Notes: generated by a model from the letters alone, not told the origin. A stretch of 64,000 nucleotides of DNA from an uncultured Chitinophagaceae bacterium (GCA_964580775.1 CAZOLW010000001.1:15021-79020); one strand, 5' to 3'; positions 42,073 to 64,000 are shown, counted from the stretch's first letter. Numbers and translations are program-made.

Positions 42073-42633
42073 TTGAAACTCTACATAAAATACATGGTCA
42101 GCATCCGTTGCAAAATGATTGTAAAGGAGGAATTGGCAAAGCTTGGCCTGCATTATATATTTGTTGAACTGGGTGTGGTGGATATTAAGGAAGAGCTTAC
42201 TGCTGAACAGCTTGAACAATTCAGGGCCGGTTTACTGAAATCGGGGCTTGAGCTGATGGAAGACCATAAAGCACAACTGATTGAAAAGATCAAGAACGTA
42301 ATTGTGGAAATGATTCATTATGCTGATGAACTGCCCAGGATAAAAAACTCAGACTATATCAGCCAGAAGCTGAATCATGATTATACCTATCTCGCCAACC
42401 TGTTTTCAGAATCAACAGGTACAACCATTGAACACTACATCATTGCACATAAAATAGAAAAAGTAAAGGAACTGCTTTTATACGATGAACTCAATCTTAC
42501 CGAAATATCTTACCGGCTCAATTACAGCAGTGTAGCTCATTTATCGAACCAGTTTAAGAAAGTAACCGGTCTTACCCCCACCTTCTTTAAACAGCTCCAG
42601 GAGAAAAGACGTGTCACACTCGAAGATGTGTGA
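42073..42633 (+). CDS. AraC-family regulator 1 (short N-terminal domain + HTH_18)
   Basis: TTG start; IKYMVSIRC N-terminus; HDYTYLANLFSE and YSSVAHLSNQFKKVTGLTP. Confidence 0.92.
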   Translation: MKLYIKYMVSIRCKMIVKEELAKLGLHYIFVELGVVDIKEELTAEQLEQFRAGLLKSGLELMEDHKAQLIEKIKNVIVEMIHYADELPRIKNSDYISQKLNHDYTYLANLFSESTGTTIEHYIIAHKIEKVKELLLYDELNLTEISYRLNYSSVAHLSNQFKKVTGLTPTFFKQLQEKRRVTLEDV

Positions 42634-42663
42634 ATGATGTAACTTATTTCTGCAATTGTGTAA
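42629..42663 (+). promoter_or_regulatory. 35-bp regulon motif, site 1
   Basis: TGTGAATGATGTAACTTATTTCTGCAATTGTGTAA; -7-like CATCTTTG ends 29 bp later. Confidence 0.8.
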
Positions 42664-42718
42664 GTGCAGCCTTTTGAACAAAGGCATCTTTGTGTATATA
42701 CCCTTTAAAAAAATCAAC

Positions 42719-43327
42719 TTGAAGCTATTTATCAAATACATGGTCAGTAACCGCTGCAAAATGGTTGTAAAGGAAGAGTTGAAAAAACTCGGCCTTCACT
42801 TTGTTGTTGTTGACCTGGGCGAAGTGGATATCATGGAAACTATTGCCCCCGAACAGCGGATTGAGCTGAAAGAAGCCTTACTTGCTTCCGGCCTTGAACT
42901 GATGGATGATAAACGGTCCATGCTGATTGAAAAAATTAAGAATGCCATCGTTGAAATGGTTCACTATTCAGACGAACAGATTAAAATCAATTTTTCAGAT
43001 TTTCTGAGCAGTAAATTAAATCACGACTATACTTACCTTGCCAACCTGTTTTCAGAAGTACAGGGCACTACCATTGAGCAGTTCATCATCAACCATAAAA
43101 TTGAACGCATTAAAGAACTCATTATTTATGGCGAACTGAACATTACAGAAATAGCCTGGAAAATGAATTACAGCAGTGTGGCGCATTTATCGAACCAGTT
43201 TAAAAAGAATACGGGGCTCACACCTTCGCATTTTAAACAAATGAAAGATAAACGGAGAAGTCCGCTTGAAGAAATAGGGAACCAACCTGAAATAAACGGG
43301 ATCAAAAAAACTCCCTTCGTTTTGTAA
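42719..43327 (+). CDS. AraC-family regulator 2 (paralogue of regulator 1)
   Basis: TTG start at 42719 aligns with regulator 1; the two HTH recognition segments are identical. Confidence 0.92.
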   Translation: MKLFIKYMVSNRCKMVVKEELKKLGLHFVVVDLGEVDIMETIAPEQRIELKEALLASGLELMDDKRSMLIEKIKNAIVEMVHYSDEQIKINFSDFLSSKLNHDYTYLANLFSEVQGTTIEQFIINHKIERIKELIIYGELNITEIAWKMNYSSVAHLSNQFKKNTGLTPSHFKQMKDKRRSPLEEIGNQPEINGIKKTPFVL

Positions 43328-43389: not shown

Positions 43390-46300
43390 GTGAATACAGG
43401 CAACCCAATAAATGAAAAATTGGCCAAATCAACCAACCTCTTCCCCGTGGTTGGCATTGGTGCGTCGGCAGGCGGACTCGGTGCTTTTAAAAAATTATTG
43501 AAAGCCATACCGGAAAATTCGGGCATGGCTTATGTGCTGGTACAGCATCTTGACCCCAACCACGAAAGCCTGTTACCCGAAATACTGCAAAAAGTTACCC
43601 GTATACCGGTATTAGAAATTACGGATGATATTAAAGTGATGCCTGATCACATTTATGTTATCCCCAGCAATAAAATGATGATGGCTACGGATGGCATTTT
43701 AATGCTTGCCCCCAGGCCTGCAAAAAGTAAAACCGAACGCAACCTGCCTATTGACCTTTTCTTTGCTTCGCTGGCTGAAGTGCATCAGGAACATGCCATA
43801 GGAGTTGTGTTATCGGGCACTGCATCTGATGGCACACTGGGATTAAAAGCCATTAAAGAACAGGGAGGCATCACTTTTGCGCAGGACGAAGCATCGGCAG
43901 AATATGAAAGCATGCCCCATAGTGCTGTAGAGGCAGGTGTGGTAGATTTTATTTTGCCACCGGAAGATATACCGAAAAAACTGCTGGAAGTAACCAGTAA
44001 AACAATACTGAGTGATGAAGCACTGCAAAACATTCCAAAGCAGGATGAAGATGTTTTTAAACAGATCCTTTCATTGCTGCGCATCCGCAAAGGGGTTGAT
44101 TTTACGTATTACAAACAAACTACCATACGCCGCAGAATATTACGCAGGATGGTGGTAAATAAAAACGAAGAACCGGCCGACTATCTCAAATTTTTAAGAG
44201 CAAACGCAGCCGAGCAGGATTTGCTGTACCAGGATATGCTGATACCGGTAACATCCTTTTTTCGTGATAAAAAAACCTTTGAGAATTTATGCAACCATGT
44301 TTTTCCTGCTATTTTAAAAAATAAAATCCCCGGCGAAATAACACGGATATGGGTTGCGGGCTGCAGTACGGGCCAGGAAGTGTACTCTTTTGCAATATGC
44401 TTTAAAGAATTTTTAGGCGATGCGCATGAAAAAATACAGATTTTTGGCACCGACCTCAGCGAACCGGCCATTACAAAAGCCCGTAGCGGCATGTATGAAA
44501 AAAGTGAAGTAGAAGATTCCGTGTCGCCACAGCGCCTGAAGGAGTATTTCACAAAAAACAGTGGCGGTTACCAGGTAAATAAAAGCATCCGGGATATGTG
44601 TGTGTTTGCCCACCACAATTTTTTAAAGGACCCGCCCTTTGGCAAGATGGATTGTATAAGCTGCCGCAATGTGCTTATTTATATGGAGCCTTACCTGCAA
44701 AAAAAGGCGTTAACTACTTTTCATTATGCACTGAACCCTAAAGGATTTTTATTACTCGGCAAATCAGAAACTACCGGCGGTGTACCCGATCTGTTTGCTG
44801 CTGTAGAAAAAAATGACAAGCTATACACCCGTAAAGATGTGCCCGGCAGGTTTATACAGGTAACAAGCCAGCGAAGCGAACAAATTTTGAGAAATGTAAA
44901 TGTCTCTTCCAAAAGTGAGAACATCCGTACTGACTTTCAAAAAACAGCTGATGATATTTTGCTTACGAAGTATACCCCGGCCGGTGTAATAGTAAATGAA
45001 GCCATGGACATTGTTCATTTTCGTGGTAACTCAGCAAACTATTTAGAACAGGCCCCCGGCAAACCCAGCCATAATTTATTATTGATGGCAAAAAACGGTT
45101 TAGGTTTTGAGCTGCGCAATATTTTGCACAAAGCAAAAACTGATAAGCTACCGGTGGTAAAAGAAAATATTCCACTGAGTGTAAATGGCAACCTGCGCAA
45201 TATTTCTATTGAAGCAATTCCGCTGCCCAACACATTGGAGCCGTATTATTTGATCCTCTTTCACGATAATAATTTAACTGATACCGATGGATCGGTCATA
45301 AGCAATAAGAAAAAAGTTTCGTCTAAAACAAAAAAAGACGAAACAGATATTCGCATACAACTGTTAGAACAGGAACTGGCACAGGCCCGTGAAGATATGC
45401 GGAGTATTACAGAAGACCAGGAAGCAAGCAACGAAGAACTGCAAAGTGCCAACGAGGAACTGCTTAGTGGCAGCGAAGAATTGCAGAGCCTGAACGAAGA
45501 ACTGGAAACCAGCAAGGAAGAATTGCAAAGTACCAACGAAGAACTCACCGTTTTAAATCATGAATTAGTTAACCTGAACGAGCAGGTTACAGATGCAAGA
45601 AATTATTCCGAATCCATCGTGGCCACCCTTTATCAACCGCTGCTGGTGCTGGATAAACACCTGCGGGTAAAAACGGCCAACAAGGCTTTTTATAAAACAT
45701 TTCAAGTAAATGAACAGGAAACAGAAGGTGTGTTGGTGTACGACCTTGGTAACCGGCAATGGAATATCCCCGAACTGCGGAACATGCTGGAAGAAATTTT
45801 GCCGCAAAAAACACAGGTCACCAATTTTGAAGTAACACACAACTTTTCATCAATTGGAGAAAGAGTAATTCTATTGAGTGCCCTGGAATTAAGAAGAGAG
45901 AAAAAGGAAGAAAAACTGATCCTTCTCTCCATTGAGGATATTACCGAACGGAAAAAATCGGAAGTAATCATAAAAAAAAGCAGTGAGCACTTCAGGCGGC
46001 TTGTTAAGGATCTGCCGGCGGCAGTTTATTCCTGCGATCAAACTGGCCTTATAAATTTTTATAACGATGCTGCTGTAAAAATATGGGGCCGCAAGCCCGA
46101 AATTGGAAAAGAGCTTTGGAGTGGTTCGTATAAAATGTTTACACCCGATGGTTCAGTATTAGCTCCGGAAAAAAGTCCCATGGCAATGGCGTTGAAAGAA
46201 GCCCGTTTTATTCCCGGTGAAGAAATTATTATTGAACGGCCCGATGGCAGCCGTTCTTTTGTACGTGTATATCCACAACCTGAATTTAATGCGTCAGGTG

Positions 46301-49218
46301 AATTAATCGGTGCAATCAATATGGGTTTTGATGTTACCGAACAGGTGATTGCCCGGAAAAAAATAGAAGAAAGCGAAACAAAGTTTCGAACCCTGCTTGA
46401 AGATGCACCTGTAGCAACCTGCTTATTTGCCGGAAGAGAAATGATTATAGAAATGGCCAATGAACTGATGATAGGTTATTGGGGTAAAGATAAAAATGTA
46501 ATAGGAAAACCATTAAAAGATGCTGTTCCGGAATTAAGAGAGCAGCCATTTCTTAACATATTAGATGAGGTATTTACAACAGGCAAAACCTACGAGGCGA
46601 AGAATGAACTTGCACAACTTGTGGTAAACGGTGTATCAGGCAATTACTATTTTGATTATACGTATAAACCCATTCACAATGCTTCAGGCGAAGTGTATGG
46701 CATTATTAATATGGCAGTAGATGTAACAGAGCAGGTAATTGCCCGCAAAAAAATTGAAGAAAGTGAAAAACAATTCAGGTTGATGGCAGAATTGATGCCG
46801 CAAAAAGTATGGACCACTGATGCAGAAGGAAACAAAAACTATTTCAATCAAACATTGCTTGACTATGCAGGTTATACATTTGAAGAATTAAAAGGCGATG
46901 GATGGTCAAAAATTATTCATCCGGAAGATTGGGAAAAGAATAAAATACCATGGGAAGAATCCGTGAGAACAGGAAAGGATTATGAAGCAGAAAACAGGCT
47001 GCTCCGTAAAGACGGAATCTACTTATGGCATCTTACAAGAGCAGTTGCTTTAAAAGATGATGATGGCAACATAAAAATGTGGGTAGGTTCTAAAACTGAA
47101 ATACAGGAGCAACGTGAACAGAAAGAAGAATTGGAAAGATCAGTAGCAGAGCGAACACATGAATTACGAAAAGCGAATCTTGAGCTGGAAGAAAAACACC
47201 ATGAATTGTTTATCACCAAGGAAAAATTGCTTACTGAATATTCACGCAGTTTAATTGAAGCCAGTCTCGATCCGCTTGTTACCATCAACCCGGAAGGAAA
47301 GATCACTGATATGAATCTTGCCACAGAGAAAATAACCGGTCTGTCGAAGGAAAAACTGATTGGCTCTGATTTCTTTACTTATTTTACTGAACCCGAAAAA
47401 GCAAGTAAAGTATACGAAGAAGTATTTCAAAAAGGATCGGTTATAAACGCTCCTCTTATTCTCCGTCATGCAGATGGAACATTGACTGATGTACTTTTAA
47501 ATGGGTCGGTTTATAAAGATGGCAAAAATAATGTACTGGGCGTGGTGCTGGTTGCAAGGGATGTTACCGATGAAAAAAGAATTGAAAGGGAATTAACAGA
47601 GGCCATTGTATTTGCCGAACTGGCAACGGGGCTTGCAGAAGATGCAAAAATGAAAGCAGAAAATGCTGCACTGATTGCTGAGGATGCGGTAAAAGCAAAA
47701 CAGCAGTTTTTAAGCAATATGAGTCATGAAATACGCACACCAATGAATGCAATCATTGGCTTTACAAAAGTGGTATTGAAAACAGATCTTACTGCCAAAC
47801 AACGGGAATATTTAACGGCCATAAAACTCAGTGGTAATTCATTAATTGTTCTCATCAATGATATTCTTGACCTGGCGAAAGTGGATGCTGGAAAAATGTC
47901 CTTTGAAGAAATCCCCTTTAAACTGTCATCTTCCATCTCAGCCATGATGCATTTGTTTGAAGCCAAGTTCCAGGAAAAGAATTTAGAACTGGTAAAGGAA
48001 TATGATAACAGTATCCCTGATGTATTGCTGGGCGATCCGGTTCGTTTGCACCAGATTATTTTAAACCTGATGAGTAATGCAGTAAAATTTACATCAGCAG
48101 GAAAAATAACAGTGAGCCTTCACCTGCTGCGGGAGGATGAACAAAAGGTTGAGATTGAATTTTCAATTGCTGATACAGGAACAGGAATTCCTGAAAATAA
48201 AACAGAGCAGATCTTCGAAAAATTTCACCAGGCATCGAGTGACACCTCCAGGTTATATGGCGGAACAGGATTAGGGCTTGCCATTGTTAAACAACTGGTG
48301 GAATCGCAGGGAGGAACCATTCGTGTTAAAAGTGAAATGGGTGTTGGTTCTGTGTTCAGTTTTACATTGCCCTTTAAGAAAACAAACCAACCGGTTGAAT
48401 CGGAAATTGAACTGCTGAAATTTGATACTGATAACAAAAACATCAAAGTACTGGTGGTGGAAGATATTGCACTCAACCAGTTACTGATGAAAACATTGCT
48501 GGATGATTTCGGCTTTGAACGGGAGATGGCTGAAAATGGAAAAATTGCCATTGAAAAACTGAAAGCAAAAAACTACGACATTATTCTCATGGATCTGCAA
48601 ATGCCTGAAATGAACGGGTTTGAAGCAACAGAATATATCCGCAAAACCATGAAATCAAAAATTCCCATCATTGCATTAACAGCCGATGTTACAACGGTTG
48701 ACCTGGCAAAATGCAAAGCAGTTGGCATGAACGATTACATTGCCAAGCCCGTTGATGAGCGGTTGCTGTACAGCAAAATAGTGGGACTGGTAAAAAAACC
48801 TCTGCATGAGAAAAAAAATGAAACCCGGAAAACGGTAAAGGCTGATGCTGCAAATACAAAATGCATCAATCTTGATTATTTAAACCAGCGCACAAAATCA
48901 AATCCTGTATTGATGATGGAGATGATTTCGCTGTATTTAGAACAAACCCCTCCCCTTGTGAGCCTGATGAAGCAGAGCTTTCTTGATAATAACAGGGAAC
49001 TGCTGTATGAAGCTGCACATAAAATAATTCCTTCTTTTACCATCATGGGCATCAGTAAAGATTTTGAAACGATGACAAAAAAAATAAAAGACTACGCCCG
49101 CTCACAACAGGAGGCAACTGGAATAAACGAGCTGATACTGCAGGTTGAAAATATTTGTACACAGGCATGTATTGAATTAAAAGAAGAGTACACAGCCATT
49201 AAAAATTATAACACATGA
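43390..49218 (+). CDS. CheB-CheR-PAS(x5)-HisKA-HATPase-REC-HPt hybrid histidine kinase
   Basis: CheB GASAGG/QHLD/SDG triad; CheR GCSTGQE and SCRNVLIY; EELQS coiled coil; multiple PAS; FLSNMSHEIRTP; DLQMP; AAHK HPt. Confidence 0.92.
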   Translation: MNTGNPINEKLAKSTNLFPVVGIGASAGGLGAFKKLLKAIPENSGMAYVLVQHLDPNHESLLPEILQKVTRIPVLEITDDIKVMPDHIYVIPSNKMMMATDGILMLAPRPAKSKTERNLPIDLFFASLAEVHQEHAIGVVLSGTASDGTLGLKAIKEQGGITFAQDEASAEYESMPHSAVEAGVVDFILPPEDIPKKLLEVTSKTILSDEALQNIPKQDEDVFKQILSLLRIRKGVDFTYYKQTTIRRRILRRMVVNKNEEPADYLKFLRANAAEQDLLYQDMLIPVTSFFRDKKTFENLCNHVFPAILKNKIPGEITRIWVAGCSTGQEVYSFAICFKEFLGDAHEKIQIFGTDLSEPAITKARSGMYEKSEVEDSVSPQRLKEYFTKNSGGYQVNKSIRDMCVFAHHNFLKDPPFGKMDCISCRNVLIYMEPYLQKKALTTFHYALNPKGFLLLGKSETTGGVPDLFAAVEKNDKLYTRKDVPGRFIQVTSQRSEQILRNVNVSSKSENIRTDFQKTADDILLTKYTPAGVIVNEAMDIVHFRGNSANYLEQAPGKPSHNLLLMAKNGLGFELRNILHKAKTDKLPVVKENIPLSVNGNLRNISIEAIPLPNTLEPYYLILFHDNNLTDTDGSVISNKKKVSSKTKKDETDIRIQLLEQELAQAREDMRSITEDQEASNEELQSANEELLSGSEELQSLNEELETSKEELQSTNEELTVLNHELVNLNEQVTDARNYSESIVATLYQPLLVLDKHLRVKTANKAFYKTFQVNEQETEGVLVYDLGNRQWNIPELRNMLEEILPQKTQVTNFEVTHNFSSIGERVILLSALELRREKKEEKLILLSIEDITERKKSEVIIKKSSEHFRRLVKDLPAAVYSCDQTGLINFYNDAAVKIWGRKPEIGKELWSGSYKMFTPDGSVLAPEKSPMAMALKEARFIPGEEIIIERPDGSRSFVRVYPQPEFNASGELIGAINMGFDVTEQVIARKKIEESETKFRTLLEDAPVATCLFAGREMIIEMANELMIGYWGKDKNVIGKPLKDAVPELREQPFLNILDEVFTTGKTYEAKNELAQLVVNGVSGNYYFDYTYKPIHNASGEVYGIINMAVDVTEQVIARKKIEESEKQFRLMAELMPQKVWTTDAEGNKNYFNQTLLDYAGYTFEELKGDGWSKIIHPEDWEKNKIPWEESVRTGKDYEAENRLLRKDGIYLWHLTRAVALKDDDGNIKMWVGSKTEIQEQREQKEELERSVAERTHELRKANLELEEKHHELFITKEKLLTEYSRSLIEASLDPLVTINPEGKITDMNLATEKITGLSKEKLIGSDFFTYFTEPEKASKVYEEVFQKGSVINAPLILRHADGTLTDVLLNGSVYKDGKNNVLGVVLVARDVTDEKRIERELTEAIVFAELATGLAEDAKMKAENAALIAEDAVKAKQQFLSNMSHEIRTPMNAIIGFTKVVLKTDLTAKQREYLTAIKLSGNSLIVLINDILDLAKVDAGKMSFEEIPFKLSSSISAMMHLFEAKFQEKNLELVKEYDNSIPDVLLGDPVRLHQIILNLMSNAVKFTSAGKITVSLHLLREDEQKVEIEFSIADTGTGIPENKTEQIFEKFHQASSDTSRLYGGTGLGLAIVKQLVESQGGTIRVKSEMGVGSVFSFTLPFKKTNQPVESEIELLKFDTDNKNIKVLVVEDIALNQLLMKTLLDDFGFEREMAENGKIAIEKLKAKNYDIILMDLQMPEMNGFEATEYIRKTMKSKIPIIALTADVTTVDLAKCKAVGMNDYIAKPVDERLLYSKIVGLVKKPLHEKKNETRKTVKADAANTKCINLDYLNQRTKSNPVLMMEMISLYLEQTPPLVSLMKQSFLDNNRELLYEAAHKIIPSFTIMGISKDFETMTKKIKDYARSQQEATGINELILQVENICTQACIELKEEYTAIKNYNT

Positions 49219-49311
49219 AATATCCATAAAAATTATCAAGCTAATTTACGCAGGCAGCGATGATAATTTTTATGGATATACTATGTGGCCAAAAAAAATA
49301 AAAATGAACAC

Positions 49312-49746
49312 ATGAAAAACGAAAACAAAATATCCCTTTTCCTGGTAGATGATGATGCTGTGTTTTTAAAACTCCTGGAAATTGAGCTGCTGCAGCATGC
49401 TGATTTTACTATTACAACCTTTTCATCAGGAGAGTTGTGCCTTGAACAACTGTCGCAAAACCCCGATGTAATCATTTTAGATTATCACCTAGATGGCATC
49501 AATAAAAATGCAATGAACGGGCTGGAAACCCTTGACAGAATAAAAGCAGCCAATGCCGATATTCCCGTTGTAATGCTGTCATCACAGGACAGTATTGATG
49601 TGGCCATCAACTGTATGCATCACAGAGCATTGGATTATGTGGTGAAAAGCGAAACAGCCTTTCTGCGCCTGCAGAAAATTATCACCACTCTTTTCAGTTA
49701 TAAAAAAATGGAGAAAGAGCTGAACTGGTATATGGACAGAATGTAA
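49312..49746 (+). CDS. Receiver-only response regulator
   Basis: VDDD, ILDYHL and YVVK; no output domain. Confidence 0.9.
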   Translation: MKNENKISLFLVDDDAVFLKLLEIELLQHADFTITTFSSGELCLEQLSQNPDVIILDYHLDGINKNAMNGLETLDRIKAANADIPVVMLSSQDSIDVAINCMHHRALDYVVKSETAFLRLQKIITTLFSYKKMEKELNWYMDRM

Positions 49747-49772: not shown

Positions 49773-49807
49773 TGTGAATTGTGTAAGTTATTTCAATAGT
49801 TGTGTAA
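49773..49807 (+). promoter_or_regulatory. 35-bp regulon motif, site 2
   Basis: TGTGAATTGTGTAAGTTATTTCAATAGTTGTGTAA; CAATTTTA ends 29 bp later. Confidence 0.8.
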
Positions 49808-49916: not shown

Positions 49917-50378
49917 ATGAATCAACCGCATACCCCGCTCAACATACTGCTTGCAGATGATGATATTGACGACCGTTTTTTCTTTGATAAAGCATTAAAG
50001 GAAATAAAGGTGGCATCCAACCTGGTAACTGTGAGCAATGGAGAGCTCCTGATGAAATATCTTACAGAACGTTTACTGCAGCTTCCTGATATTCTTTTTC
50101 TTGATTTAAGTATGCCCCGTAAAACCGGGTTTGAATGCCTGGCCGAAATAAAAGAGAATGACCAATTAAAAGATCTTCCCGTCATTATTTTCACTACTTC
50201 CTTTACAAGGGGTATTGACTTTGAAGATAACCTCAAAAAAACATTCAGCAAAATGGGTGCTGAAGGCTATATACGCAAGCCGGGCGATTTTGAAGAACTC
50301 AAAGAGGTAATTCATCAAACACTGCTGAAGATGATGAACAGAAACAATCCTGTGGAAACCCAAACGGACCGGCAATAA
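49917..50378 (+). CDS. Receiver-only response regulator
   Basis: LADDD, FLDLSMP and YIRKP. Confidence 0.92.
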   Translation: MNQPHTPLNILLADDDIDDRFFFDKALKEIKVASNLVTVSNGELLMKYLTERLLQLPDILFLDLSMPRKTGFECLAEIKENDQLKDLPVIIFTTSFTRGIDFEDNLKKTFSKMGAEGYIRKPGDFEELKEVIHQTLLKMMNRNNPVETQTDRQ

Positions 50379-50451
50379 TGCCAGCCCTTACATTCAATAT
50401 AAGAGAACTCAAACAAGTATTCTGTAACAACCTGTTTAAAACAACTCAATC

Positions 50452-50895
50452 ATGACTTCAAAGAAATTACAAATACTCCTGGCCGATGATGATATTGATG
50501 ATTGTCATTTCTTTACTGAAGCTCTGGAAGTGTTGCCTGTAGATACAAAACTTAAAATTGTGAATGATGGAGTTGAACTGATGGATTATCTCTCAGAAAA
50601 TACAGAACAGCTTCCGCATGTACTTTTTCTTGATATTAATATGCCACGCAAAAACGGGTTTGAATGCCTGTCGGAAATTAAGCATCACGAACAGATGAAA
50701 GACCTTCCTGTTATAATGTTTTCTACATCCAACGAACGGGATAAAATAAATATTCTTTTCAAAAACGGGGCAGATGTATATATCCGCAAGCCAAGCAATT
50801 TTGCACAGTTGGTACAGGTTATTAATCACGCTTTACCGATGGCAGCCGAAAATATATTTTCGAATGGTAAATTAAAGTATATCCTCAACGCATGA
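50452..50895 (+). CDS. Receiver-only response regulator
   Basis: LADDD, FLDINMP and YIRKP. Confidence 0.92.
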   Translation: MTSKKLQILLADDDIDDCHFFTEALEVLPVDTKLKIVNDGVELMDYLSENTEQLPHVLFLDINMPRKNGFECLSEIKHHEQMKDLPVIMFSTSNERDKINILFKNGADVYIRKPSNFAQLVQVINHALPMAAENIFSNGKLKYILNA

Positions 50896-52736: not shown

Positions 52737-52752
52737 TCTCCCCCACCCAACG

Positions 52753-53197: not shown

Positions 53198-53253
53198 ACA
53201 AAGAAACAACAGATGCTGTGGGTTTAAAAGAACCCTTTGATAAAATAAACCGT

Positions 53254-54072: not shown

Positions 54073-54107
54073 TGAGAATCTTGCAACTCTTTCTGATAAT
54101 TGTGTAA
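54073..54107 (+). promoter_or_regulatory. 35-bp regulon motif, site 4
   Basis: TGAGAATCTTGCAACTCTTTCTGATAATTGTGTAA; GAACTTTG ends 30 bp later. Confidence 0.78.
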
Positions 54108-55745: not shown

Positions 55746-55780
55746 TGTGAATGTTGTAACTTATTACAGAAGTTGTGTAA
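55746..55780 (+). promoter_or_regulatory. 35-bp regulon motif, site 5
   Basis: TGTGAATGTTGTAACTTATTACAGAAGTTGTGTAA; CATCTTTA ends 30 bp later. Confidence 0.8.
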
Positions 55781-55849: not shown

Positions 55850-56548
55850 GTGAAATACCTGATAACCGAACGCTTTTCAACAACGCTGCAGATTGTTGCA
55901 CTTATTTGTTTGATCAGCTATTCCGGTTTTACAGCCAACCGGGATTCACAAATGAAATCAATGGCTGATTCAACAGCTGTAAAACAGACTGCATTGGAGC
56001 TTACAATTAATATGCACACCCTCTGGGATGACAATGCCACCTGGACCAGAACTGTATTACTCTGTTTTATTGATGATCTTCCGGGTAAAGAACAGGCAAC
56101 AAAACGCCTGCTGCAGAACCAGGCAGACATTGGCAACTCCATGAAACCTTATTATGGCCTGGAAGCAGGCAGGAAACTGACACTGTTACTGAACAAACAT
56201 ATACAGATCTCAGCCGAAATGGTATACGCAGCTAAATCAAAAAACAAATCGTTACTGGAAGCTGCCAATGAACAGTGGCATGAGAATGCTGATGAAATTT
56301 CTGCATTCCTCAGTAAAAGAAACCCTGATTGGGTTCTGCAGGATATGAAGGAAATGATGGATCAGCAGATCAAACTGATTACTGACCAGGTGCAGCAGAG
56401 AATGAACAAAAACTATGATGAAGACATCATTGCTTATGATAAAGCGCATGCTGAAATATTGAAAATGTCGGTAATTATCTCAAAAGGGATCATCAAACAG
56501 TTCCCTGAGAAATTTTTACCACAGGTAACGGCAACAGTTTATAAATAA
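55850..56548 (+). CDS. Secreted all-helical hypothetical protein
   Basis: GTG start, signal-like N-terminus, LWDDNATWTR...RLLQNQADIG...PYYG helical domain. Confidence 0.7.
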   Translation: MKYLITERFSTTLQIVALICLISYSGFTANRDSQMKSMADSTAVKQTALELTINMHTLWDDNATWTRTVLLCFIDDLPGKEQATKRLLQNQADIGNSMKPYYGLEAGRKLTLLLNKHIQISAEMVYAAKSKNKSLLEAANEQWHENADEISAFLSKRNPDWVLQDMKEMMDQQIKLITDQVQQRMNKNYDEDIIAYDKAHAEILKMSVIISKGIIKQFPEKFLPQVTATVYK

Positions 56549-56553
56549 TCGAC

Positions 56554-57225
56554 ATGAAAGAACATCTCGTTAAACTGATATCAATTGAAAAGCTGACACA
56601 TGATGTGCTGAGGATTGTTACAGAAAAACCTGAAGGGTTTAGCTTCACACCAGGGCAGGCTGCAGAACTATCCATTAATAAAGATGAATGGAAAGAAGAA
56701 AAAAGGCCATTTACCTTTACCTGTTTACCGGAAGATGATTACCTCGAGTTTACGATTAAAACATACCCGTTACACAAAGGCGTAACCAACCAGCTTTTTT
56801 CATTGAAGCCTTCTGATGAATTAATTCTGCATGAAGTATTTGGAGCCATTCAATATAGGGGCGAAGGTATTTTTATTGCCGGCGGTGCAGGAGTAACGCC
56901 ATTCATTTCCATCTTCCGTTACCTGAAATCAACAGGTAAAACAGGAAATAACAAACTCATTTTTGCCAATAAAACAAAAGCTGATATTATTCTTGAACAG
57001 GAATTCAGAAAGCAGCTGGGAAATAATTTCATCAACATTTTATCCGAAGAAAAAGCAGCAGGTTATGAAAATGGAATGATCAGTGAAGACTTCATTGAGG
57101 CACACAGCAGCGGAACAGATCAGCTGTTTTATATATGCGGTCCCAAACCAATGATGGAAGCAGTTGAGAAACAACTGGCCGCCCTGCATGTAAAAGAAGA
57201 ATCGATCATTAAAGAAGCCATCTGA
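56554..57225 (+). CDS. FAD-binding oxidoreductase (ferredoxin/flavodoxin-NADP reductase-like)
   Basis: FTPGQ, RPFTFT, AGGAGVTPF and YICGP. Confidence 0.9.
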   Translation: MKEHLVKLISIEKLTHDVLRIVTEKPEGFSFTPGQAAELSINKDEWKEEKRPFTFTCLPEDDYLEFTIKTYPLHKGVTNQLFSLKPSDELILHEVFGAIQYRGEGIFIAGGAGVTPFISIFRYLKSTGKTGNNKLIFANKTKADIILEQEFRKQLGNNFINILSEEKAAGYENGMISEDFIEAHSSGTDQLFYICGPKPMMEAVEKQLAALHVKEESIIKEAI

Positions 57226-57306
57226 CTTTCACCAAATCATTGCATCCGTTATCATTTTACCGGATGCCTTCATTTAATATAAACGAAAAACAAAAACGAT
57301 TCAATC

Positions 57307-57780
57307 ATGAAAGCAAATATTGGTATCTCTGAAAAACATACAGACAGTATAACATCTCTCCTTTCTGTATTATTAGCTGATGAAATGATTCTATATGTTA
57401 AAACAAGAAAATTTCACTGGAATGTAAGCGGTGAAAGCTTTATGGAATTACATAAGCTGTTTGAAGGCCAGTACAAGCAGCTGGAAGAATATATTGATGA
57501 AGTTGCTGAACGCATTAATAAGCTGGGCGAAAAAACGATTGGCACATTGTTTGAATTCAGTGCTCTGGCCACACTGAAAGAAGCACCCGGTAAATATCCA
57601 TCACAAAAAAATATCCTCCAGGAATTACTGAGCGACCATGAAACACTTACCAGGCAGTTGAGAAAATATGTTACTGAATGCAGCGAGAAATACAAAGATG
57701 CCGGCACTGCTGACTTTTTAACCGGTCTTATGGAACAGCATGAAACTGCAGCATGGGTATTACGCAGATATCTTAATTAA
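57307..57780 (+). CDS. dps: DNA starvation/stationary phase protection protein
   Basis: KTRKFHWNVSG, LHKLFE, DEVAERI and HETAAW. Confidence 0.95.
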   Translation: MKANIGISEKHTDSITSLLSVLLADEMILYVKTRKFHWNVSGESFMELHKLFEGQYKQLEEYIDEVAERINKLGEKTIGTLFEFSALATLKEAPGKYPSQKNILQELLSDHETLTRQLRKYVTECSEKYKDAGTADFLTGLMEQHETAAWVLRRYLN

Positions 57781-57798
57781 ACAACAATTGCTTTTATC

Positions 57799-58665
57799 AT
57801 GTTAAGCAAAAGCATTCAAGAAATCAAAAACCTGAAGCCCATTGTTAAAGCAAAAGGTTTTGCCACAAAGCAATCAATAAGGCTTAGTGATAAAACACTG
57901 GCCAAAACAAAAGAGGCCAATAACTTTTTAACGGATATTGCTGATGTTGTTCTGTTCATACAAAGCATCATCAGGGAAACATTTTCAGGAGGCTTTGAAT
58001 GGAGAGAATTTTTCCGTCAATGTTTTCAAACAGGCTATAAAACATTGCCGTTAATTTCAGTAACCGGAACTATTATGGGTCTTGTACTCACTATTCAATC
58101 AAGACCGGTACTGGTAGATTTTGGTGCAGTAACCATGCTGCCCGGAATGGTAGCCGTATCACTCATCAGGGAAATGGGTCCTGTTATTACAGCCCTCATC
58201 TGCGCAGGAAAAATCAGTTCAGGCATTGGTGCAGAACTGGGCTCCATGAAAGTAACGGAACAGATTGATGCAATGGAAGTTTCTTCCACCAATCCCATCA
58301 AATTCTTAGTAGTAACAAGAGTGCTTGCTGCTACACTGATGATTCCATTACTGATCTTATATGCTGATGGACTGGGTATTCTGGCCAGTTGGGCAGGTGC
58401 CAATATGAAAGGCGATGTAACTCTTTCCTTATATTTTTCACAGGCTTTTAGCCAGGTTGGATTTATCGATCTGATACCTGCAGTCATTAAGTCTTTTTTC
58501 TTTGGAGCGGTCATTGGATTGGTAGGCAGCTATAAAGGTTACAATGCCGGACGTGGAACAGAAAGTGTTGGTGTTGCAGCCAACTCGGCGGTTGTAACCG
58601 CATCGCTGTGGGTATTGATTGTAGATATGATTGCCGTACAAATTACAGATATGATGATATCATGA
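57799..58665 (+). CDS. mlaE: MlaE-family ABC permease
   Basis: REMGPVITALICAGKISSGIGAELGSMKVTEQIDAM. Confidence 0.92.
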   Translation: MLSKSIQEIKNLKPIVKAKGFATKQSIRLSDKTLAKTKEANNFLTDIADVVLFIQSIIRETFSGGFEWREFFRQCFQTGYKTLPLISVTGTIMGLVLTIQSRPVLVDFGAVTMLPGMVAVSLIREMGPVITALICAGKISSGIGAELGSMKVTEQIDAMEVSSTNPIKFLVVTRVLAATLMIPLLILYADGLGILASWAGANMKGDVTLSLYFSQAFSQVGFIDLIPAVIKSFFFGAVIGLVGSYKGYNAGRGTESVGVAANSAVVTASLWVLIVDMIAVQITDMMIS

Positions 58666-59435
58666 TAACAGAACAAACAAACATATCAGTTGAGCAAAAA
58701 AATTCTGCTGAACCGGTGATTGAAATCAGCAACCTGAAAAAAACATTTGGCGAACAGGAAGTGCTGAGCAATGTTAGCTTATCGCTTCTCAATGGTGAAA
58801 ACCTGGTTGTACTTGGAAAATCCGGATCGGGCAAATCTGTTTTAATTAAATGTATTGCAGGCTTACTCGCTGCTGATAGCGGAACAATAAAAGTGTTTGG
58901 CGAAACAGTATCAACCATGAACCGGAAAGAAATGGCTGAAATGAGAAAGAAAATCGGTTTCCTTTTTCAGTTGGGTGCATTGTATGATTCCATGACAGTT
59001 AAAGAAAACATTGAATTTCCGTTGCAGAGAATCAGGAAAGATCTTTCAAAAAAACAACGGGAAGAAAAAGTACTGGAAGCATTGGAAAATGTTGACCTCG
59101 CAGATTCAATTGACAAAATGCCTTCCCAGCTTTCGGGTGGTATGAAGAAAAGAATCAGCCTGGCAAGAACAATTGCAGTAGATCCCATGATCATGCTGTA
59201 CGATGAGCCAACAACCGGTCTCGATCCTGTTACCTCGTATGAAATAAGCGAATTGATTAATCGTGTGCAGAAAAAATATAAAACATCTTCCATCATTATC
59301 ACCCATGATATTAAATGTGCGCTGCATACAGCCAACCGGATGATGATGATCAAAGATGGCGAAGTGTACAAAGAGGGCAAAAAAGAAGAATTTGAACAGT
59401 CAGATGATCCTTTGATTCAATCGTTCTTTCAATAA
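58662..59435 (+). CDS. mlaF: MlaF-family ABC ATPase
   Basis: GKSGSGKS, LSGGMKKR and DEPTTGLDP; ATGA overlap with mlaE. Confidence 0.92.
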   Translation: MITEQTNISVEQKNSAEPVIEISNLKKTFGEQEVLSNVSLSLLNGENLVVLGKSGSGKSVLIKCIAGLLAADSGTIKVFGETVSTMNRKEMAEMRKKIGFLFQLGALYDSMTVKENIEFPLQRIRKDLSKKQREEKVLEALENVDLADSIDKMPSQLSGGMKKRISLARTIAVDPMIMLYDEPTTGLDPVTSYEISELINRVQKKYKTSSIIITHDIKCALHTANRMMMIKDGEVYKEGKKEEFEQSDDPLIQSFFQ

Positions 59436-59514
59436 ACAGTTAACCGGTTATGCATTGAAGTATTATTATTTTTCAAGCAATACTCATTTTATAAAACGTA
59501 TATAAAACACATTT

Positions 59515-60261
59515 ATGGCAACGCATTCACAAAACTTTAAAATCAGGCTGGGTCTGTTTGTAGCAGGTGGACTGGCACTGTTTATTGCCGCTGTATTTAT
59601 CATTGGCAAACAGAAGAACCTGTTTGATCCCGTGTTTAAACTTACAGCAACTTTTAACAATGTAAGCGGGCTGCAGGTAGGAAATAATATCCGTTTTGCC
59701 GGTATTACTGTGGGCACTGTTGACAATATCGTTATCATCAACGATTCAACTGTAAGAGTGGATATGCTGCTCAGGAAAACGGTGAAGAAATTTATCCGGA
59801 CAGATTGTGAAGTAGCCATTGGATCAGAAGGAATTATCGGGGATCGCCTGGTGGTTATTTCACAGGGAACTGCAGAAGCCCCACTCGTAAAAGAAGGACA
59901 AGCGCTTACATCAACAGAGCCTGTTGAAACAGATGCCATCATGGCCAGCTTACAGGTAACAGCCGGTAATGCTGAAATCATTACAGAGCAGCTTGCAGAA
60001 ATCACCGTTAAAATCAACAGCGGCAAAGGAACATTGGGACGGTTGATATCGGATCCAACCATTGCCAACAACCTGAGCCAGTCAATGACGAATATTAAAG
60101 AAAGCAGCGAAGGGTTAAGTGAAAATATGGAAGCCGCTAAAGACAATTTTCTGTTGAGAGGATATTACAAACGAAAAGCAAAAGCAGCAGAGAAGAAGGC
60201 AGCTGATAAAAAAGCAGCTGAACAAAAAGCAGCTGAGCAGAAAGAAAAGAATAAGCAGTAA
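59515..60261 (+). CDS. mlaD: MlaD/MCE-family protein
   Basis: Single TM; FNNVSGLQVGNNIRFAGITVG; SEGIIGD. Confidence 0.92.
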   Translation: MATHSQNFKIRLGLFVAGGLALFIAAVFIIGKQKNLFDPVFKLTATFNNVSGLQVGNNIRFAGITVGTVDNIVIINDSTVRVDMLLRKTVKKFIRTDCEVAIGSEGIIGDRLVVISQGTAEAPLVKEGQALTSTEPVETDAIMASLQVTAGNAEIITEQLAEITVKINSGKGTLGRLISDPTIANNLSQSMTNIKESSEGLSENMEAAKDNFLLRGYYKRKAKAAEKKAADKKAAEQKAAEQKEKNKQ

Positions 60262-60394: not shown

Positions 60395-60429
60395 TGTGAA
60401 CTATGCAATTCTTACATACAATTGTGTAA
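60395..60429 (+). promoter_or_regulatory. 35-bp regulon motif, site 6
   Basis: TGTGAACTATGCAATTCTTACATACAATTGTGTAA; CAACTTCG ends 30 bp later. Confidence 0.75.
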
Positions 60430-60514: not shown

Positions 60515-62524
60515 ATGAAAACTAATTTACGTTTAACGACACTGCTGATTCTAACAGCTTTTGTATTTGCCAGTTGCGAGAAAGACACGTTCGTCGAAAA
60601 AGTGGGTATATGCCCTGAGGTGGTTTCAAACACACCTGCCAATGCTGCAACAGGCGTGCCTCTTAACCAGGTTCTTACAGCAACCTTTAACCAGGAAATG
60701 AATCCTCAAACAATCAACAGCACATCTTTTACATTAATGGGTGCAACAGCTGTAACAGGAACTGTTTCTTACAGTGGAACAACTGCAACATTTGCTCCGT
60801 CAACTCCTCTTACAGCAAATACTACGTATACTGCAAGAGTTTCAACATTGGCAAAAGATTTAATGGGTAATGCATTACAGGCAGATTATACATGGACATT
60901 CAGCACTGGTGCAACCGTTTCACCAATGGTAATTACAACTGACCCGATCAGCAATGCAACAGGAGTTGTGCTGAATAAACTGGTGAAAGCAACCTTCAGT
61001 GTACCCATGAATCCACTGAGCATTACTGCACAAACCTATACCTTAAAACAAGGCACTGTACCTGTTGCAGGAACCGTGTCTTACAGTGGTTCAACAGCAA
61101 CATTCACTCCTACAACAGCATTACTGCCGAATACCATTTATACTGCCACCATCACCATTGGTGCAGCAAATGTTGCAGGTACTACACTTGCCAATAATTA
61201 TGTATGGACATTTACTACAGGTACTCTAAATGGTCCTACAGTTCTTTCAACAGATCCAGCAAACAATGCAACAGGAGTTGTACTGAATAAACTGATTAGT
61301 GCAACCTTCAGCACACCCATGGATGCATTAACCATTACAACAACCACCTTTACAGTAAAGCAGGGCACAACATCAGTAGCCGGAACAGTTACCTATTCAG
61401 GTTCTGTTGCAACCTTCACTCCCGCTGCGCCGCTTTTACTGAATACAGTTTATACAGCTACCATTACAAACGGAGCAAAAAATGTTGCAGGCACAGCGCT
61501 TACAAATGATTATGTATGGTCATTTACAACAGAAAGTATTCTCACTCCTGTTGTAGTATCAACTGATCCTGCAAACAATGCAACCGGAGTTGTTCTGAAT
61601 AAAGTTATTAAAGCAACCTTCAGTATGCCAATGGATGCGTTAACGATTACTGCTGCAACTTTTACATTGAAGCAAGGCACAACATCCATAGCAGGAACAA
61701 TTACCTATTCGGGTTTAACTGCAAGCTTTACTCCGCTTCTGCCGCTTATTACAAACATGCCGTATACTGCCACCATAACAACGGGTGCAAAAAATGCAGC
61801 AGGTATTTCATTATCGAACAATTATGTGTGGAATTTTTCTACAGCAGCCATTTTAAATGTAACAGGTGTTGATCTTAAAACTGTTGGACGTTTTGGAATC
61901 ATTGCCGGTGTTGGTGTAAGTAACAATGCAGGCTTCAGTGAAATTCATGATATGGATGTTGGTATCAGCCCCGGTGTTCGTTCTTCTATTACCGGTTTCC
62001 CACCTGCTATAATAGTAAATGGAGCAATCTATGCTTCTGATGATATTGCACCTCCGGGAATACCTGCAATGTTAATCCAGGCAAAACAGGATTTAACCGA
62101 TGCATATCTTTTTGCAGAAGGAGCAGTTTCACCTGCACCTGCAACTGTTGCCGGTGATCTTGGCGGACAAACGCTTGCTCCGGGAATTTATAAATCAACT
62201 TCAACCTTGATGATACAATCAGGTAACCTTACACTGGATGCTCAGGGCGATGTAAATGCTGTATGGATTTTCCAGATAGCTGCAGGCTTTACAACTGTAG
62301 GCGGTGCAGGTGGAAGTGTTATTCTCAGCGGTGGTGCACAGGCGAAGAATGTGTTTTGGCAAACAGGAAGTTCTGCTACCATTGGAGACTTTACAGCGTT
62401 TAAAGGAACCATCTTAGCATTAACCTCCATTACCATGAATTCAGGAGCAACTGCCCAGGGCAGAATGCTTGCAAGAAATGGTTCAGTTGTTTTAACCAGC
62501 ACAAATATTATTACTAAGCCGTAA
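60515..62524 (+). CDS. Lipoprotein with four Ig-like (Big_5) repeats and a C-terminal DUF3494 ice-binding-like domain
   Basis: FASC lipobox; four P..NATGV.LN..I.ATFS...Y.W.F.T units; TLAPGIY, WIFQIA, VFWQTGSSAT and GRMLA. Confidence 0.9.
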   Translation: MKTNLRLTTLLILTAFVFASCEKDTFVEKVGICPEVVSNTPANAATGVPLNQVLTATFNQEMNPQTINSTSFTLMGATAVTGTVSYSGTTATFAPSTPLTANTTYTARVSTLAKDLMGNALQADYTWTFSTGATVSPMVITTDPISNATGVVLNKLVKATFSVPMNPLSITAQTYTLKQGTVPVAGTVSYSGSTATFTPTTALLPNTIYTATITIGAANVAGTTLANNYVWTFTTGTLNGPTVLSTDPANNATGVVLNKLISATFSTPMDALTITTTTFTVKQGTTSVAGTVTYSGSVATFTPAAPLLLNTVYTATITNGAKNVAGTALTNDYVWSFTTESILTPVVVSTDPANNATGVVLNKVIKATFSMPMDALTITAATFTLKQGTTSIAGTITYSGLTASFTPLLPLITNMPYTATITTGAKNAAGISLSNNYVWNFSTAAILNVTGVDLKTVGRFGIIAGVGVSNNAGFSEIHDMDVGISPGVRSSITGFPPAIIVNGAIYASDDIAPPGIPAMLIQAKQDLTDAYLFAEGAVSPAPATVAGDLGGQTLAPGIYKSTSTLMIQSGNLTLDAQGDVNAVWIFQIAAGFTTVGGAGGSVILSGGAQAKNVFWQTGSSATIGDFTAFKGTILALTSITMNSGATAQGRMLARNGSVVLTSTNIITKP

Positions 62525-62535
62525 AAGATTATTAT

Positions 62536-64000
62536 ATGAAATCAAACATTATTTTAAAAAAGAGATCATGCACTGCATGGTCTCTTTACAACCTCCGTAT
62601 CAAAACTCTTACTGCCTTCATTTTTATTTTAACCGCTACAGGAACTCTGCAGGCACAGGTTACTGATTACACAAAACCATCCTGGTGGTTTGGTGCAGCA
62701 GCTGCTGCAAACATTAACCTGTACAGCGGTTCAACACAGCAATTAAATTCTGGCTTAACTGTGCCCACAGCATTTCATAAAGGAAGTGGAGCAGGGTTAT
62801 ATGTTGCACCACTGGTAGAATATCACCGTGCCGATACAAGATTTGGATTTACGCTTCAGTTAGGATATGACAGCCGCAGAGCATCATTTAATGAAGTTAC
62901 TACAGCTTGTAACTGTCCGGCTGACCTGTCAACAAAGCTTAGTTATTTCACTGTTGAACCAAGCTTACGTATTGCACCATTTAAATCTGATTTCTATTTG
63001 TATGTGGGGCCACGTGTAGCGTTTAATCTCAACAAATCGTTTACGTATCAGTTAGGGGTTAATCCTGATATTCCAGCTCAAACAAAAAGTGCAGAAGTAA
63101 AAGGCGATTTCAGTAATATCAACAGCACCATTTTTTCCATGCAGGTTGGTGCAGGATATGATATAGCTCTTTCAGCAAAAGACAAACAGACACAGACAGT
63201 ACTTTCTCCCTTTGTTTCATTTCACCCGTACTTTGGTCAATCACCACGTACTATAGAAACATGGAATGTAACAACAGTAAGAGCAGGTATGGCTATTAAG
63301 TTTGGCCGTGGACGTAAAGTTGCAGCAGTTGCAACAACCCCATTACCAACAGAAACAGCAGTAATTGAACCCGCTGTAAAATTTTCTGTAACAGCTCCAA
63401 AAAATATTGCTGTTGAACGCAGGGTAAGAGAAATTTTCCCTCTTCGTAACTATGTATTTTTTGATCTTGGCTCAACTGAAATACCCGGCAGATATAAATT
63501 ACTGAAAAAAGAACAGGTAGCTGATTTTAAAGAAGATCAGGTTGCATTAGTTACACCGCAAAATCTTTCAGGCCGTTCAGGCAGGCAGATGATTGTTTAC
63601 TATAACATCATCAATATCCTTGGAGACCGCATGGGCAAAAACCCAACTGCTTCAATCACATTGGTAGGATCATCAGAGACTGGTTCAGATGATGGAAAAG
63701 CAATGGCAGAATCAATCAAACAATACCTTGTTACTGTTTTTGGAATTAATTCTGCAAGAATAAATATTGAAGGAAGAAATAAACCAAAGATCCCTTCTGA
63801 ACAACCAGGTGGAACAAATGAATTGGTACTCTTACGTGAAGGCGATCGCAGAGTATCGATTGAAAGCAGTTCAGCACCTTTACTAATGGAGTTTCAGAGT
63901 GGGCCGGATGCTCCATTGAAACCGGTAGAAATTTTAGCTCTGCAACAGGAGCCGCTTGACAGTTATGTTTCATTTAATGCTGAAGGAGCAACTGAAGCAT
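62536..64000 (+). CDS. Outer-membrane beta-barrel/OmpA-like protein (truncated at window end)
   Basis: Manual translation MKSNIILKK...QVTDYTKPSWWFGAAAAAN...FPLRNYVFFDLGS..., open to the window end. Absent from the ORF track because it has no stop. Confidence 0.8.
   Translation, partial: MKSNIILKKRSCTAWSLYNLRIKTLTAFIFILTATGTLQAQVTDYTKPSWWFGAAAAANINLYSGSTQQLNSGLTVPTAFHKGSGAGLYVAPLVEYHRADTRFGFTLQLGYDSRRASFNEVTTACNCPADLSTKLSYFTVEPSLRIAPFKSDFYLYVGPRVAFNLNKSFTYQLGVNPDIPAQTKSAEVKGDFSNINSTIFSMQVGAGYDIALSAKDKQTQTVLSPFVSFHPYFGQSPRTIETWNVTTVRAGMAIKFGRGRKVAAVATTPLPTETAVIEPAVKFSVTAPKNIAVERRVREIFPLRNYVFFDLGSTEIPGRYKLLKKEQVADFKEDQVALVTPQNLSGRSGRQMIVYYNIINILGDRMGKNPTASITLVGSSETGSDDGKAMAESIKQYLVTVFGINSARINIEGRNKPKIPSEQPGGTNELVLLREGDRRVSIESSSAPLLMEFQSGPDAPLKPVEILALQQEPLDSYVSFNAEGATEA

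Follow-up and report, generated by a model that had tools for sequence, protein, structure and literature searches.

A candidate AraC-driven stress and envelope regulon with a linked phosphorelay in Bacteroidota

What reads the promoter motif that is shared by a block of signalling genes and a block of stress and envelope genes, and do the signalling proteins control whatever reads it? These questions are raised by a stretch of 64,000 nucleotides (nt) from the draft genome of an uncultured Chitinophagaceae bacterium (GCA_964580775.1 CAZOLW010000001.1:15021-79020; "the window" below, with positions counted from its first letter). Positions 42073-64000 contain 19 genes, all on the plus strand: two AraC-family regulators (AraC1 and AraC2), a hybrid kinase, four stand-alone receivers (REC1 to REC4), a second kinase with coiled-coil repeats, and effectors such as Dps, Usp, and MlaEFD (Table 1). 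The original prediction, made from the sequence alone, was that this region is a single island in which a phosphorelay controls the AraC pair and thereby a stress and envelope regulon. Its description of the genes was accurate. Pfam confirms each gene and every domain that was named, the strand is as described, and the two AraC proteins are the island's only transcription factors: Pfam finds no other DNA-binding domain in 42073-64000, and the four receivers contain Response_reg only. Judging from sequence comparisons, we consider it very likely that this AraC family binds the motif, and we favour, with distinctly less confidence, an AraC-driven and phosphorelay-gated regulon.

The motif is a candidate operator of fixed length, 35 bp, with the form TGTGAATnATGTAAC-N6-nnnAATTGTGTAA. 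The pattern TGWGAA-N7-A-N13-TTGTGTAA has 7 matches in the window, as compared to 0.07 expected from shuffles. Six of these are exact copies on the plus strand, and the other is a minus-strand copy with a single mismatch. The six plus-strand copies head six operons that together include every gene of the region except AraC1, so the signalling and effector halves do share one promoter motif, as had been claimed. Each of the six is followed by a box of the form nAnnTTTr (21-22 nt later) and by a start codon (50-110 nt later).

When all of the good copies in the genome are aligned, the consensus is aaAtGTGTGAATnaTGTAAnt..Tt.c...AATTgTGTAAca, and after 21-22 unconserved bases there is an A..TTT box that matches the -7 box of Bacteroidota housekeeping promoters (consensus TAnnTTTG). 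Within the operator, AATnnTGTAA occurs as a direct repeat at positions 5-14 and 26-35, with a period of 21 bp (two helical turns), and TGTG stands upstream of the two repeats. The promoters behind the motif have a recognisable -7 box (nAnnTTTr) and no usable -33 element. They resemble sigma-A-type promoters that lack a usable -33 element, and therefore they should depend on an activator at the 35-bp operator. The motif would cover about -69 to -35 and would substitute for the -33 element. As read from the sequence, the spacing and the repeats fit those expected for a class II AraC activator, with a dimer on tandem half-sites.

Two other explanations for the motif were rejected. It does not look like a mobile repeat or a miniature inverted-repeat transposable element, as the copies are alike only at the conserved positions of the motif, their spacers differ, and nearly all of them precede a gene that has the same orientation. 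And an extracytoplasmic-function (ECF) type promoter was ruled out because the spacing and the presence of the -7 box do not fit.

To find the rest of the regulon, we built a position weight matrix (PWM) from the clear copies of the motif and ran it on the 4.7-Mb draft genome. There are 29 sites with scores of 26.6 bits or higher, and the next best site scores 18, which is a clean gap. On contig C1, which includes the window, 14 of the 29 sites form a 34-kb cluster (52.6-86.4 kb, or from 37.6 kb in the window to 7.4 kb past its end), with eight further motif promoters within 8 kb beyond position 64000. The other 15 sites are on eight other contigs (C2, C10, C12, C18, C19, C21, C24, and C43). 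The regulon is therefore not encoded as one island, contrary to the original prediction: other contigs contain 15 of its 29 promoters, and the cluster overruns the window. The region first described was also too narrow on its left side, as a membrane protein of 234 aa behind the minus-strand copy is another member of the regulon.

The first genes behind the sites encode two CsbD proteins, YceI, DJ-1/PfpI, two cupins, a second OmpA-TSP3 protein, a glycine-zipper OmpA lipoprotein, an outer-membrane barrel protein, an acyl-ACP desaturase (FA_desaturase_2), an AI-2E-family transporter, an alpha/beta hydrolase, and DUF2846, along with several proteins that are small or of unknown kind. Beyond the end of the window, a motif copy is followed by a cupin-like gene and then by a kinase of 488 aa with PAS, HisKA_3, and HATPase domains (L023:4336-6318, minus strand, which is C1:83356-85338). 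This is the third kinase of the regulon's cluster. Hallmark stress genes are present in the regulon both here (Dps, CsbD, and Usp) and in relatives (BON and DUF892, in G100, G175, G019, and G054). With YceI and DJ-1 as well, the gene set upholds the general-stress and envelope character that was originally proposed, and, as far as the sequences tell, it looks like the general-stress and envelope programmes of the sigma-B, sigma-S, or EcfG regulons.

Bacteroidota lack RpoS. The cluster contains no sigma factor gene, and the genome has no match above the RpoS family cut-off. Two sigma factors of the sigma-A-like (group 1-like) kind, each with about 290 aa, are encoded in the genome (C6:75349-76155, minus strand, and C20:56904-57707, plus strand). 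Both score below the RpoS cut-off (258 and 244 bits vs. 378.7), and neither is near a motif site.

Three good copies of the motif are not followed by any open reading frame (ORF) of at least 35 aa for several hundred nt. These are at C1:81805-81839 (L023:2785-2819, minus strand), C2:133178-133212 (minus strand), and C18:77116-77150 (plus strand). Rfam has no matches at the sites without an ORF behind them. In G007 and G009, the copy on C2 is conserved, and so are its unusual spacer AGTGGAAGG and about 300 nt of downstream sequence. These three copies may serve as promoters of small RNAs or of an antisense transcript, or of genes for small peptides.

As binding proteins of the motif, the AraC proteins are the strongest candidates: the family co-occurs with the motif within the genus, and in dozens of genomes of various families its genes physically overlap or follow the motif. 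For the genus-level comparison, we counted motif sites in 30 relatives, along with a reversed-pattern control, and compared the counts to the identity of the AraC2 orthologue. There are 25 sites in G009 (whose AraC2 orthologue is 95% identical), 34 in G007 (88%), 11 in G013 (84%), 10 in G010 (82%), 5 in G017 (78%), and 4 in G019, which belongs to a different family (66%). Genomes whose best family member is at most 54% identical have 0-1 sites. The reversed pattern has 0-1 sites in all 30 relatives.

More broadly, a search of one genome per species with a back-translated pattern found at least 550 AraC relatives across Bacteroidota, including Chitinophagaceae, Flavobacterium, Chryseobacterium, Myroides, Algoriphagus, Cytophagales, Prolixibacteraceae, Saprospiraceae, and Balneolaceae. 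In the best 80 AraC loci (80 species and 1.3 Mb), the PWM from this genome finds 124 sites of at least 24 bits. These are in 44 of the loci, and 113 of them are on the same strand as the AraC gene. In the same loci, 27 AraC1-type genes have the motif starting within their last codons, where it overlaps the stop codon, and 15 AraC2-type genes have it 20-200 nt upstream. The motif-driven neighbours in relatives include CsbD, a coiled-coil lipoprotein, AI-2E transporters, MlaEFD, OmpA, Dps, and Usp, and more distant genomes add a BON-domain protein, DUF892, a SOUL protein, and a P-type ATPase. OmpA-TSP3 orthologues are motif-driven in G010, G017, and G049, and the operon from the 232-aa protein to MlaD has the identical order behind the motif in G010. 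In a sample of 201 complete genomes from the phylum, 18 contain the strict motif pattern, and 12 of the 22 genomes that encode an AraC protein of at least 60% identity carry it.

What kind of regulators are these? AraC1 and AraC2 are small and match just HTH_18 in Pfam (E = 2e-16 and 3e-16). No copy of the motif precedes AraC1, whose TGA stop codon falls within operator 1. AraC2 is the first gene of the motif-driven AraC2-kinase-REC1 operon, and its true start, based on the alignment of orthologues and on the sequence, is the TTG at 42719 (MKLFIKYMVSN), 55 nt past the motif. (The mechanical ORF call, TTG at 42656, was rejected as that codon lies inside the motif.) Among the best 120 of at least 8,000 clusters, members of the family are 77-93% identical, and all of them are annotated merely as AraC family regulators.

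Pfam has no match for the N-terminal domain. In an AlphaFold2 model (from 87 sequences; mean predicted confidence, pLDDT, of 85.5), residues 1-62 form a beta-alpha-beta-beta-alpha-beta fold, and a linker helix connects this fold to an AraC domain of seven helices. The predicted N-terminal domain resembles the HMA copper chaperones Atx1, GolB, and ZiaA, with template modelling (TM) scores of about 0.7. The metal loop of HMA domains (MxCxxC) is replaced by MVS(I/N)RC in AraC1 and AraC2, which have the second Cys only. The first Cys of CxxC is Ser in the regulon-linked clade, and distant paralogues retain the Cys (MVCxRC). R12-C13 is invariant at the position of the metal-binding loop, and Cys13 is kept in the 87 sequences. 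The modelled DNA-binding domain has TM scores of about 0.7-0.84 to MarA, SoxS, AraC, YesN, and AdpA; by sequence, the nearest solved domains are 12aw (a hybrid two-component system protein), 3lsg (YesN), and 6swi (AraT). The segments that presumably contact DNA are nearly identical in AraC1 and AraC2 (HDYTYLANLFSE and YSSVAHLSNQFKK). The AraC tree (186 columns) is too poorly resolved to prove two clean orthologous clades, so the AraC1 and AraC2 types are assigned by gene context.

About 105 nt upstream of the start of AraC1, a direct repeat of GATATCTGCA occurs twice, 3 nt apart (41947-41969 in the window). This could be an operator of the motif-less promoter of AraC1. In the relatives that we checked, the corresponding position lacks the repeat.

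The link to a phosphorelay lies in the genes downstream of AraC2. The hybrid kinase contains CheB_methylest, CheR_N/CheR, about five PAS domains, HisKA (E = 3e-19), HATPase_c (6e-31), and Response_reg (2e-26), and it has CheB/CheR and PAS modules instead of a predicted periplasmic domain. Its last 140 residues are probably a divergent HPt domain, with an invariant His at residue 1877 or so. The tail of this particular kinase has no sequence match in Pfam or the PDB; 14 of 18 tails of orthologous kinases match Pfam's Hpt (best E = 1.3e-5), and H-K-x-x-P-S-F-x-I-x-G is invariant. Across the phylum, conservation is limited to the part from about residue 1262 to the end (one PAS, HisKA, HATPase, REC, and HPt), and the kinases range from about 670 to 2090 aa among the loci. 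Besides this genus, only two metagenome-assembled genomes of Chitinophagales (L059 and L088) were found to have the N-terminal half with CheB and CheR.

In 28 of 28 loci, the AraC2-like gene has the hybrid kinase directly downstream, and a REC1 orthologue follows in every locus whose contig extends past the kinase. The gaps within this triad are a few bases, or else the stop and start codons overlap. The loci range over Flavobacterium, Chitinophagaceae, and Bacteroidales genomes assembled from metagenomes. Flavobacterium fluvii DSM 19978 and F. suncheonense DSM 17707 (loci L092 and L070) are examples of carriers that can be cultured. One genome (G100; locus L119, C11:95000-112999) even has two tandem AraC-kinase-REC1 triads, each behind a weaker copy of the motif; it has 11 strict matches to the motif and no separate AraC1-type gene. 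In REC1, Asp66, Ser98, and Lys120 are invariant in 24 orthologues, and the acidic pair is at least 90% conserved. REC2-4 and the repeat kinase seldom accompany the system outside this genus. The synteny of the predicted island across Bacteroidota thus holds for the order AraC2-kinase-REC1, and not for the CheB-CheR module, REC2-4, or the repeat kinase, which are lineage-specific additions. By these comparisons, the conserved unit is AraC2, the hybrid kinase with its probable HPt domain, and REC1, behind the strongest operator. Such linkage speaks well for a functional connection of AraC with the phosphorelay, whose direction is not given by linkage. That the phosphorelay controls AraC is suggested by one line of support, the conserved operon linkage.

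Between CheR and the first PAS domain, the kinase has a heptad coiled coil of the form EELQSxNEEL (at about residues 655-735). By analogy to the adaptation helices of chemoreceptors and to the S-helix of RsbK, this could be a substrate of the kinase's own CheB and CheR.

We propose the following mechanism, which we consider reasonably probable as a whole. A dimer of AraC1 or AraC2, or two adjacent copies, would bind the two half-sites of the 35-bp operator and recruit RNA polymerase to promoters that lack a -33 element. AraC1, which has its own motif-less promoter, would supply the basal activator. As AraC2 is behind the strongest operator, it would be induced along with the regulon, which implies positive feedback, and AraC2, the kinase, and the receiver together would be a signal-gated amplifier. 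AraC2 would be co-translated with the PAS hybrid kinase (HisKA-HATPase-REC-HPt) and REC1, and phosphate would flow from the kinase to its own REC, to HPt, and to REC1. Because the AraC proteins have no receiver of their own, they could be coupled to the relay solely through contact between proteins; REC1, lacking an output domain, would modulate AraC2 in this way, probably via the HMA-like domain. In some lineages, methylation of the kinase's Glu/Gln-rich coiled coil by CheB-CheR would be added, and the second motif-driven signalling operon (REC2-4 and the repeat kinase) might add further inputs or phosphate sinks. The output would be Dps, Usp, CsbD, YceI, DJ-1, cupins, OmpA-type proteins, Mla lipid transport, the acyl-ACP desaturase, and the ice-binding-like lipoprotein.

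Several observations weigh against this mechanism. The kinase and receiver genes all have a motif promoter in front of them, and a role in output or feedback would suit this as well as a role in input. In G019, the motif is accompanied by CsbD and cupin targets and by one AraC1-type gene, with no AraC2-type copy. Because G019 has the motif with an AraC1-type gene alone, the phosphorelay is not necessary for the regulon to exist. Nor is the AraC pair an obligatory unit, as the original prediction had implied: G019 has the AraC1 type only and G100 has the AraC2 type only, and both have the motif. Among the best 120 of at least 8,000 relatives, there are no REC-AraC fusions of the subfamily; these proteins have about 179-281 aa, mostly about 190-230, and the AraC domain only. 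Just six positions distinguish kinase-linked from orphan AraC proteins, and they are not clustered on the N-terminal domain. (Most of them fall in the C-terminal tail, where there is overlap with the operator, and so they reveal little about an interface.) In the sample of 201 genomes, 10 of the 22 genomes with an AraC protein of at least 60% identity have no match to the strict pattern; the operator may have diverged in these. Finally, three genomes from one family (f27), namely G044, G049, and G054 (loci L115-L117), have 2-4 strong copies of the motif, and their nearest member of the AraC family is just 34-43% identical, is of the type IFIKNMVCPRC, and is not adjacent. These copies precede genes for OmpA-TSP3, SOUL, and DUF748 proteins, and in G054, the orthologue of the acidic 119-aa protein is about 1 kb past a copy, with another gene in between. 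In f27, either a diverged AraC protein still reads the site or another factor does.

Of the alternatives, the one that survives best concerns the output. The regulon might be a specialised programme, namely envelope remodelling for cold, freezing, desiccation, or osmotic stress, instead of a general stress response. This is a possibility that we take seriously while doubting it. The ice-binding-like lipoprotein, the acyl-ACP desaturase, MlaEFD, and the several OmpA-type proteins would suit such a programme, as would BON and DUF748 proteins in relatives. However, Dps, Usp, CsbD, YceI, DJ-1, DUF892, and cupins are typical of multi-stress or stationary-phase regulons, and the several PAS domains of the hybrid kinase and the three kinases in the cluster suggest several inputs.

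A second alternative, which we judge to be unlikely, accepts that the AraC proteins drive the regulon and makes the kinases and receivers merely members of it, as signalling capacity, feedback, or phosphate sinks that act on other targets. The activity of AraC would then be set by its HMA-like domain (for example, by Cys13 sensing redox or a ligand) or by the abundance of AraC. The motif promoters of both signalling operons, the targets and the lone AraC1-type gene of G019, the invariant R12-C13, and the lack of REC-AraC fusions among the best 120 relatives would all be expected. On the other hand, the invariable order of AraC2, kinase, and REC1 in 28 loci, with overlapping or nearly abutting genes, would be an unusual linkage for mere co-regulated targets, and the replacement of the first Cys of CxxC by Ser in the regulon-linked clade also counts against this alternative.

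It is quite improbable that the 35-bp element is read by something else (an alternative sigma factor, say, or a different regulator) and that the AraC genes are just its neighbours or targets: the good copies before orthologous targets in f27 genomes without a close AraC1/2 orthologue and the genome's two sigma-A-like paralogues would fit, but direct repeats with a 21-bp period that end near -35 suit AraC-type dimers and not -35/-10 sigma elements, an ordinary Bacteroidota -7 box is at a fixed distance, the presence of the motif tracks the AraC orthologue within the genus, the motif overlaps or precedes AraC genes in 42 cases, and the f27 genomes do encode one family member with related recognition helices.

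If the AraC-driven, phosphorelay-gated reading is correct, then it could be extended. More speculatively, this might be the master general-stress switch of environmental Bacteroidota, operating without an alternative sigma factor: AraC would be toggled by contact with a phosphorylated receiver, which the kinase would supply via HPt, with tuning by CheB/CheR in some lineages. This extension is tentative. Through contact with the phosphorylated receiver, an AraC protein would be subject to a mechanism that resembles a partner switch. We know of no general-stress master regulator that has been described for Bacteroidota, and a full-text search of the literature found no description of this system of AraC, operator, and phosphorelay.

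The system is a testable candidate, with a defined 35-bp operator, a short and highly conserved regulator, and a three-gene signalling module, and its regulon can be read directly from the sequence in hundreds of species. If we are right, then the phylum can build a programme like those of sigma-B or sigma-S around an AraC-type activator, and a transcription factor without its own receiver may come under the control of a single-domain receiver. The operator could also serve as a stress-responsive promoter part in Bacteroidota genetics.

The features of the window are collected in Table 1. The repeat kinase is the final gene of the operon behind operator 2. The Dps protein is ferritin-like according to Pfam, and the OMP_b-brl_2 protein extends 575 nt past the end of the window. 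A C/T-rich imperfect tandem repeat (52640-52740), with several copies of units like GCCTTGTTGCCTTTG, lies just upstream of operator 3 within a 268-bp intergenic region.

Table 1. Motif copies and genes of the regulon in the window
Feature	Position	Strand	Remarks
Multi-pass membrane protein, 234 aa, without Pfam match	36577..37281	-	First ORF past the minus-strand motif copy
Motif copy with one mismatch, TGTGAATTATATAATTTTTTACCATAATAGTGTAA; -7 box TATCTTCG	37611..37645	-	PWM 38.1 bits
AraC1, 186 aa; HMA-like N-terminal domain (MVSIRC) and AraC DNA-binding domain	42073..42633	+	HTH_18
Operator 1; -7 box CATCTTTG at 42685-42692	42629..42663	+	49 bits, top-scoring site of the genome
AraC2; HMA-like domain, linker helix, AraC DNA-binding domain	42719..43327	+	Corrected TTG start (MKLFIKYMVSNRC...)
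Hybrid kinase, 1942 aa; CheB, CheR, coiled coil, about five PAS, HisKA, HATPase, REC, probable HPt	43390..49218	+	
REC1, stand-alone receiver, third gene of the triad	49285..49746	+	Response_reg only
Operator 2	49773..49807	+	Pattern and PWM
REC2, REC3, and REC4, three stand-alone receivers	49917..51365	+	Response_reg only
Repeat kinase, 399 aa; seven or eight 21-aa coiled-coil repeats, HisKA, HATPase	51370..52569	+	
Operator 3	52753..52787	+	Pattern and PWM
Acidic protein of 119 aa (without Pfam match) and Usp	52838..53724	+	
Operator 4	54073..54107	+	Pattern and PWM
OmpA-family outer-membrane protein with TSP_3 (thrombospondin type 3) repeats	54164..55624	+	
Operator 5	55746..55780	+	Pattern and PWM
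Operon: helical protein of 232 aa (without Pfam match), FAD/NAD reductase, Dps, MlaE, MlaF-like ATPase, MlaD	55850..60261	+	
Operator 6	60395..60429	+	Pattern and PWM
Lipoprotein with four Big_5 and Ice_binding (former DUF3494), then OMP_b-brl_2 beta-barrel protein	60515..64000	+	

How does this candidate system compare to known ones? In E. coli, the araI1-araI2 half-sites of araBAD are tandem direct repeats that abut or overlap the -35 region. The system described here is similar to AraC at araBAD, RhaS/RhaR, XylS, and MelR in its double helix-turn-helix, its repeats with a 21-bp period, and its promoters without a good -35 or -33 element. However, the N-terminal domain is a 62-residue HMA/ferredoxin-like fold instead of a cupin of about 170 residues, so these proteins do not belong to the sugar-type AraC group. 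Also, unlike activators of the araBAD type, they would target about 29 stress and envelope promoters and not one catabolic operon, and they are conserved across the phylum at the level given above for the best 120 clusters. The hybrid two-component systems of Bacteroides, YesN, and AraT have a related AraC DNA-binding domain, and a kinase and a receiver are genetically tied to the AraC output. In the hybrid systems, these are parts of one polypeptide with a periplasmic sensor, whereas here the kinase, the receiver, and AraC are separate and there is probably an HPt step. As the proteins are separate, this is not a hybrid two-component system.

Among stress regulators, MarA/SoxS/Rob and GadX/GadW of E. 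coli belong to the AraC family, and the Gad proteins are a paralogous pair. MarA and SoxS are single-domain monomers that bind one 20-bp box and are controlled by abundance. In the PhyR-NepR-EcfG system of Alphaproteobacteria, several kinases and stand-alone receivers feed a master regulator via a partner switch of sigma and anti-sigma factors. That system and the regulon described here have Dps and CsbD as hallmark targets in common, but the partner switch is theirs only. Neither an HMA-like AraC protein nor a conserved AraC-kinase-receiver operon is part of PhyR-NepR-EcfG, MarA/SoxS/Rob, or GadX/GadW.

In Bacillus cereus, RsbK, a hybrid kinase with a C-terminal receiver, governs the sigma-B stress response, and its signalling helix is methylated by RsbM; the output of this RsbK-RsbM-RsbY pathway is a PP2C response regulator that acts on an anti-sigma partner switch and sigma-B (PMC4574943). 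The kinase in the window is reminiscent of RsbK-RsbM, as it has CheR and CheB fused to it beside a Glu/Gln-rich heptad coiled coil. Unlike RsbK-RsbM-RsbY, the system here has no alternative sigma factor, and CheB-CheR is present in some lineages of Chitinophagales only. Overall, what separates the candidate regulon from those of sigma-B, sigma-S, and EcfG is that its promoters keep a -7 box of the housekeeping type and that no alternative sigma factor is the master.

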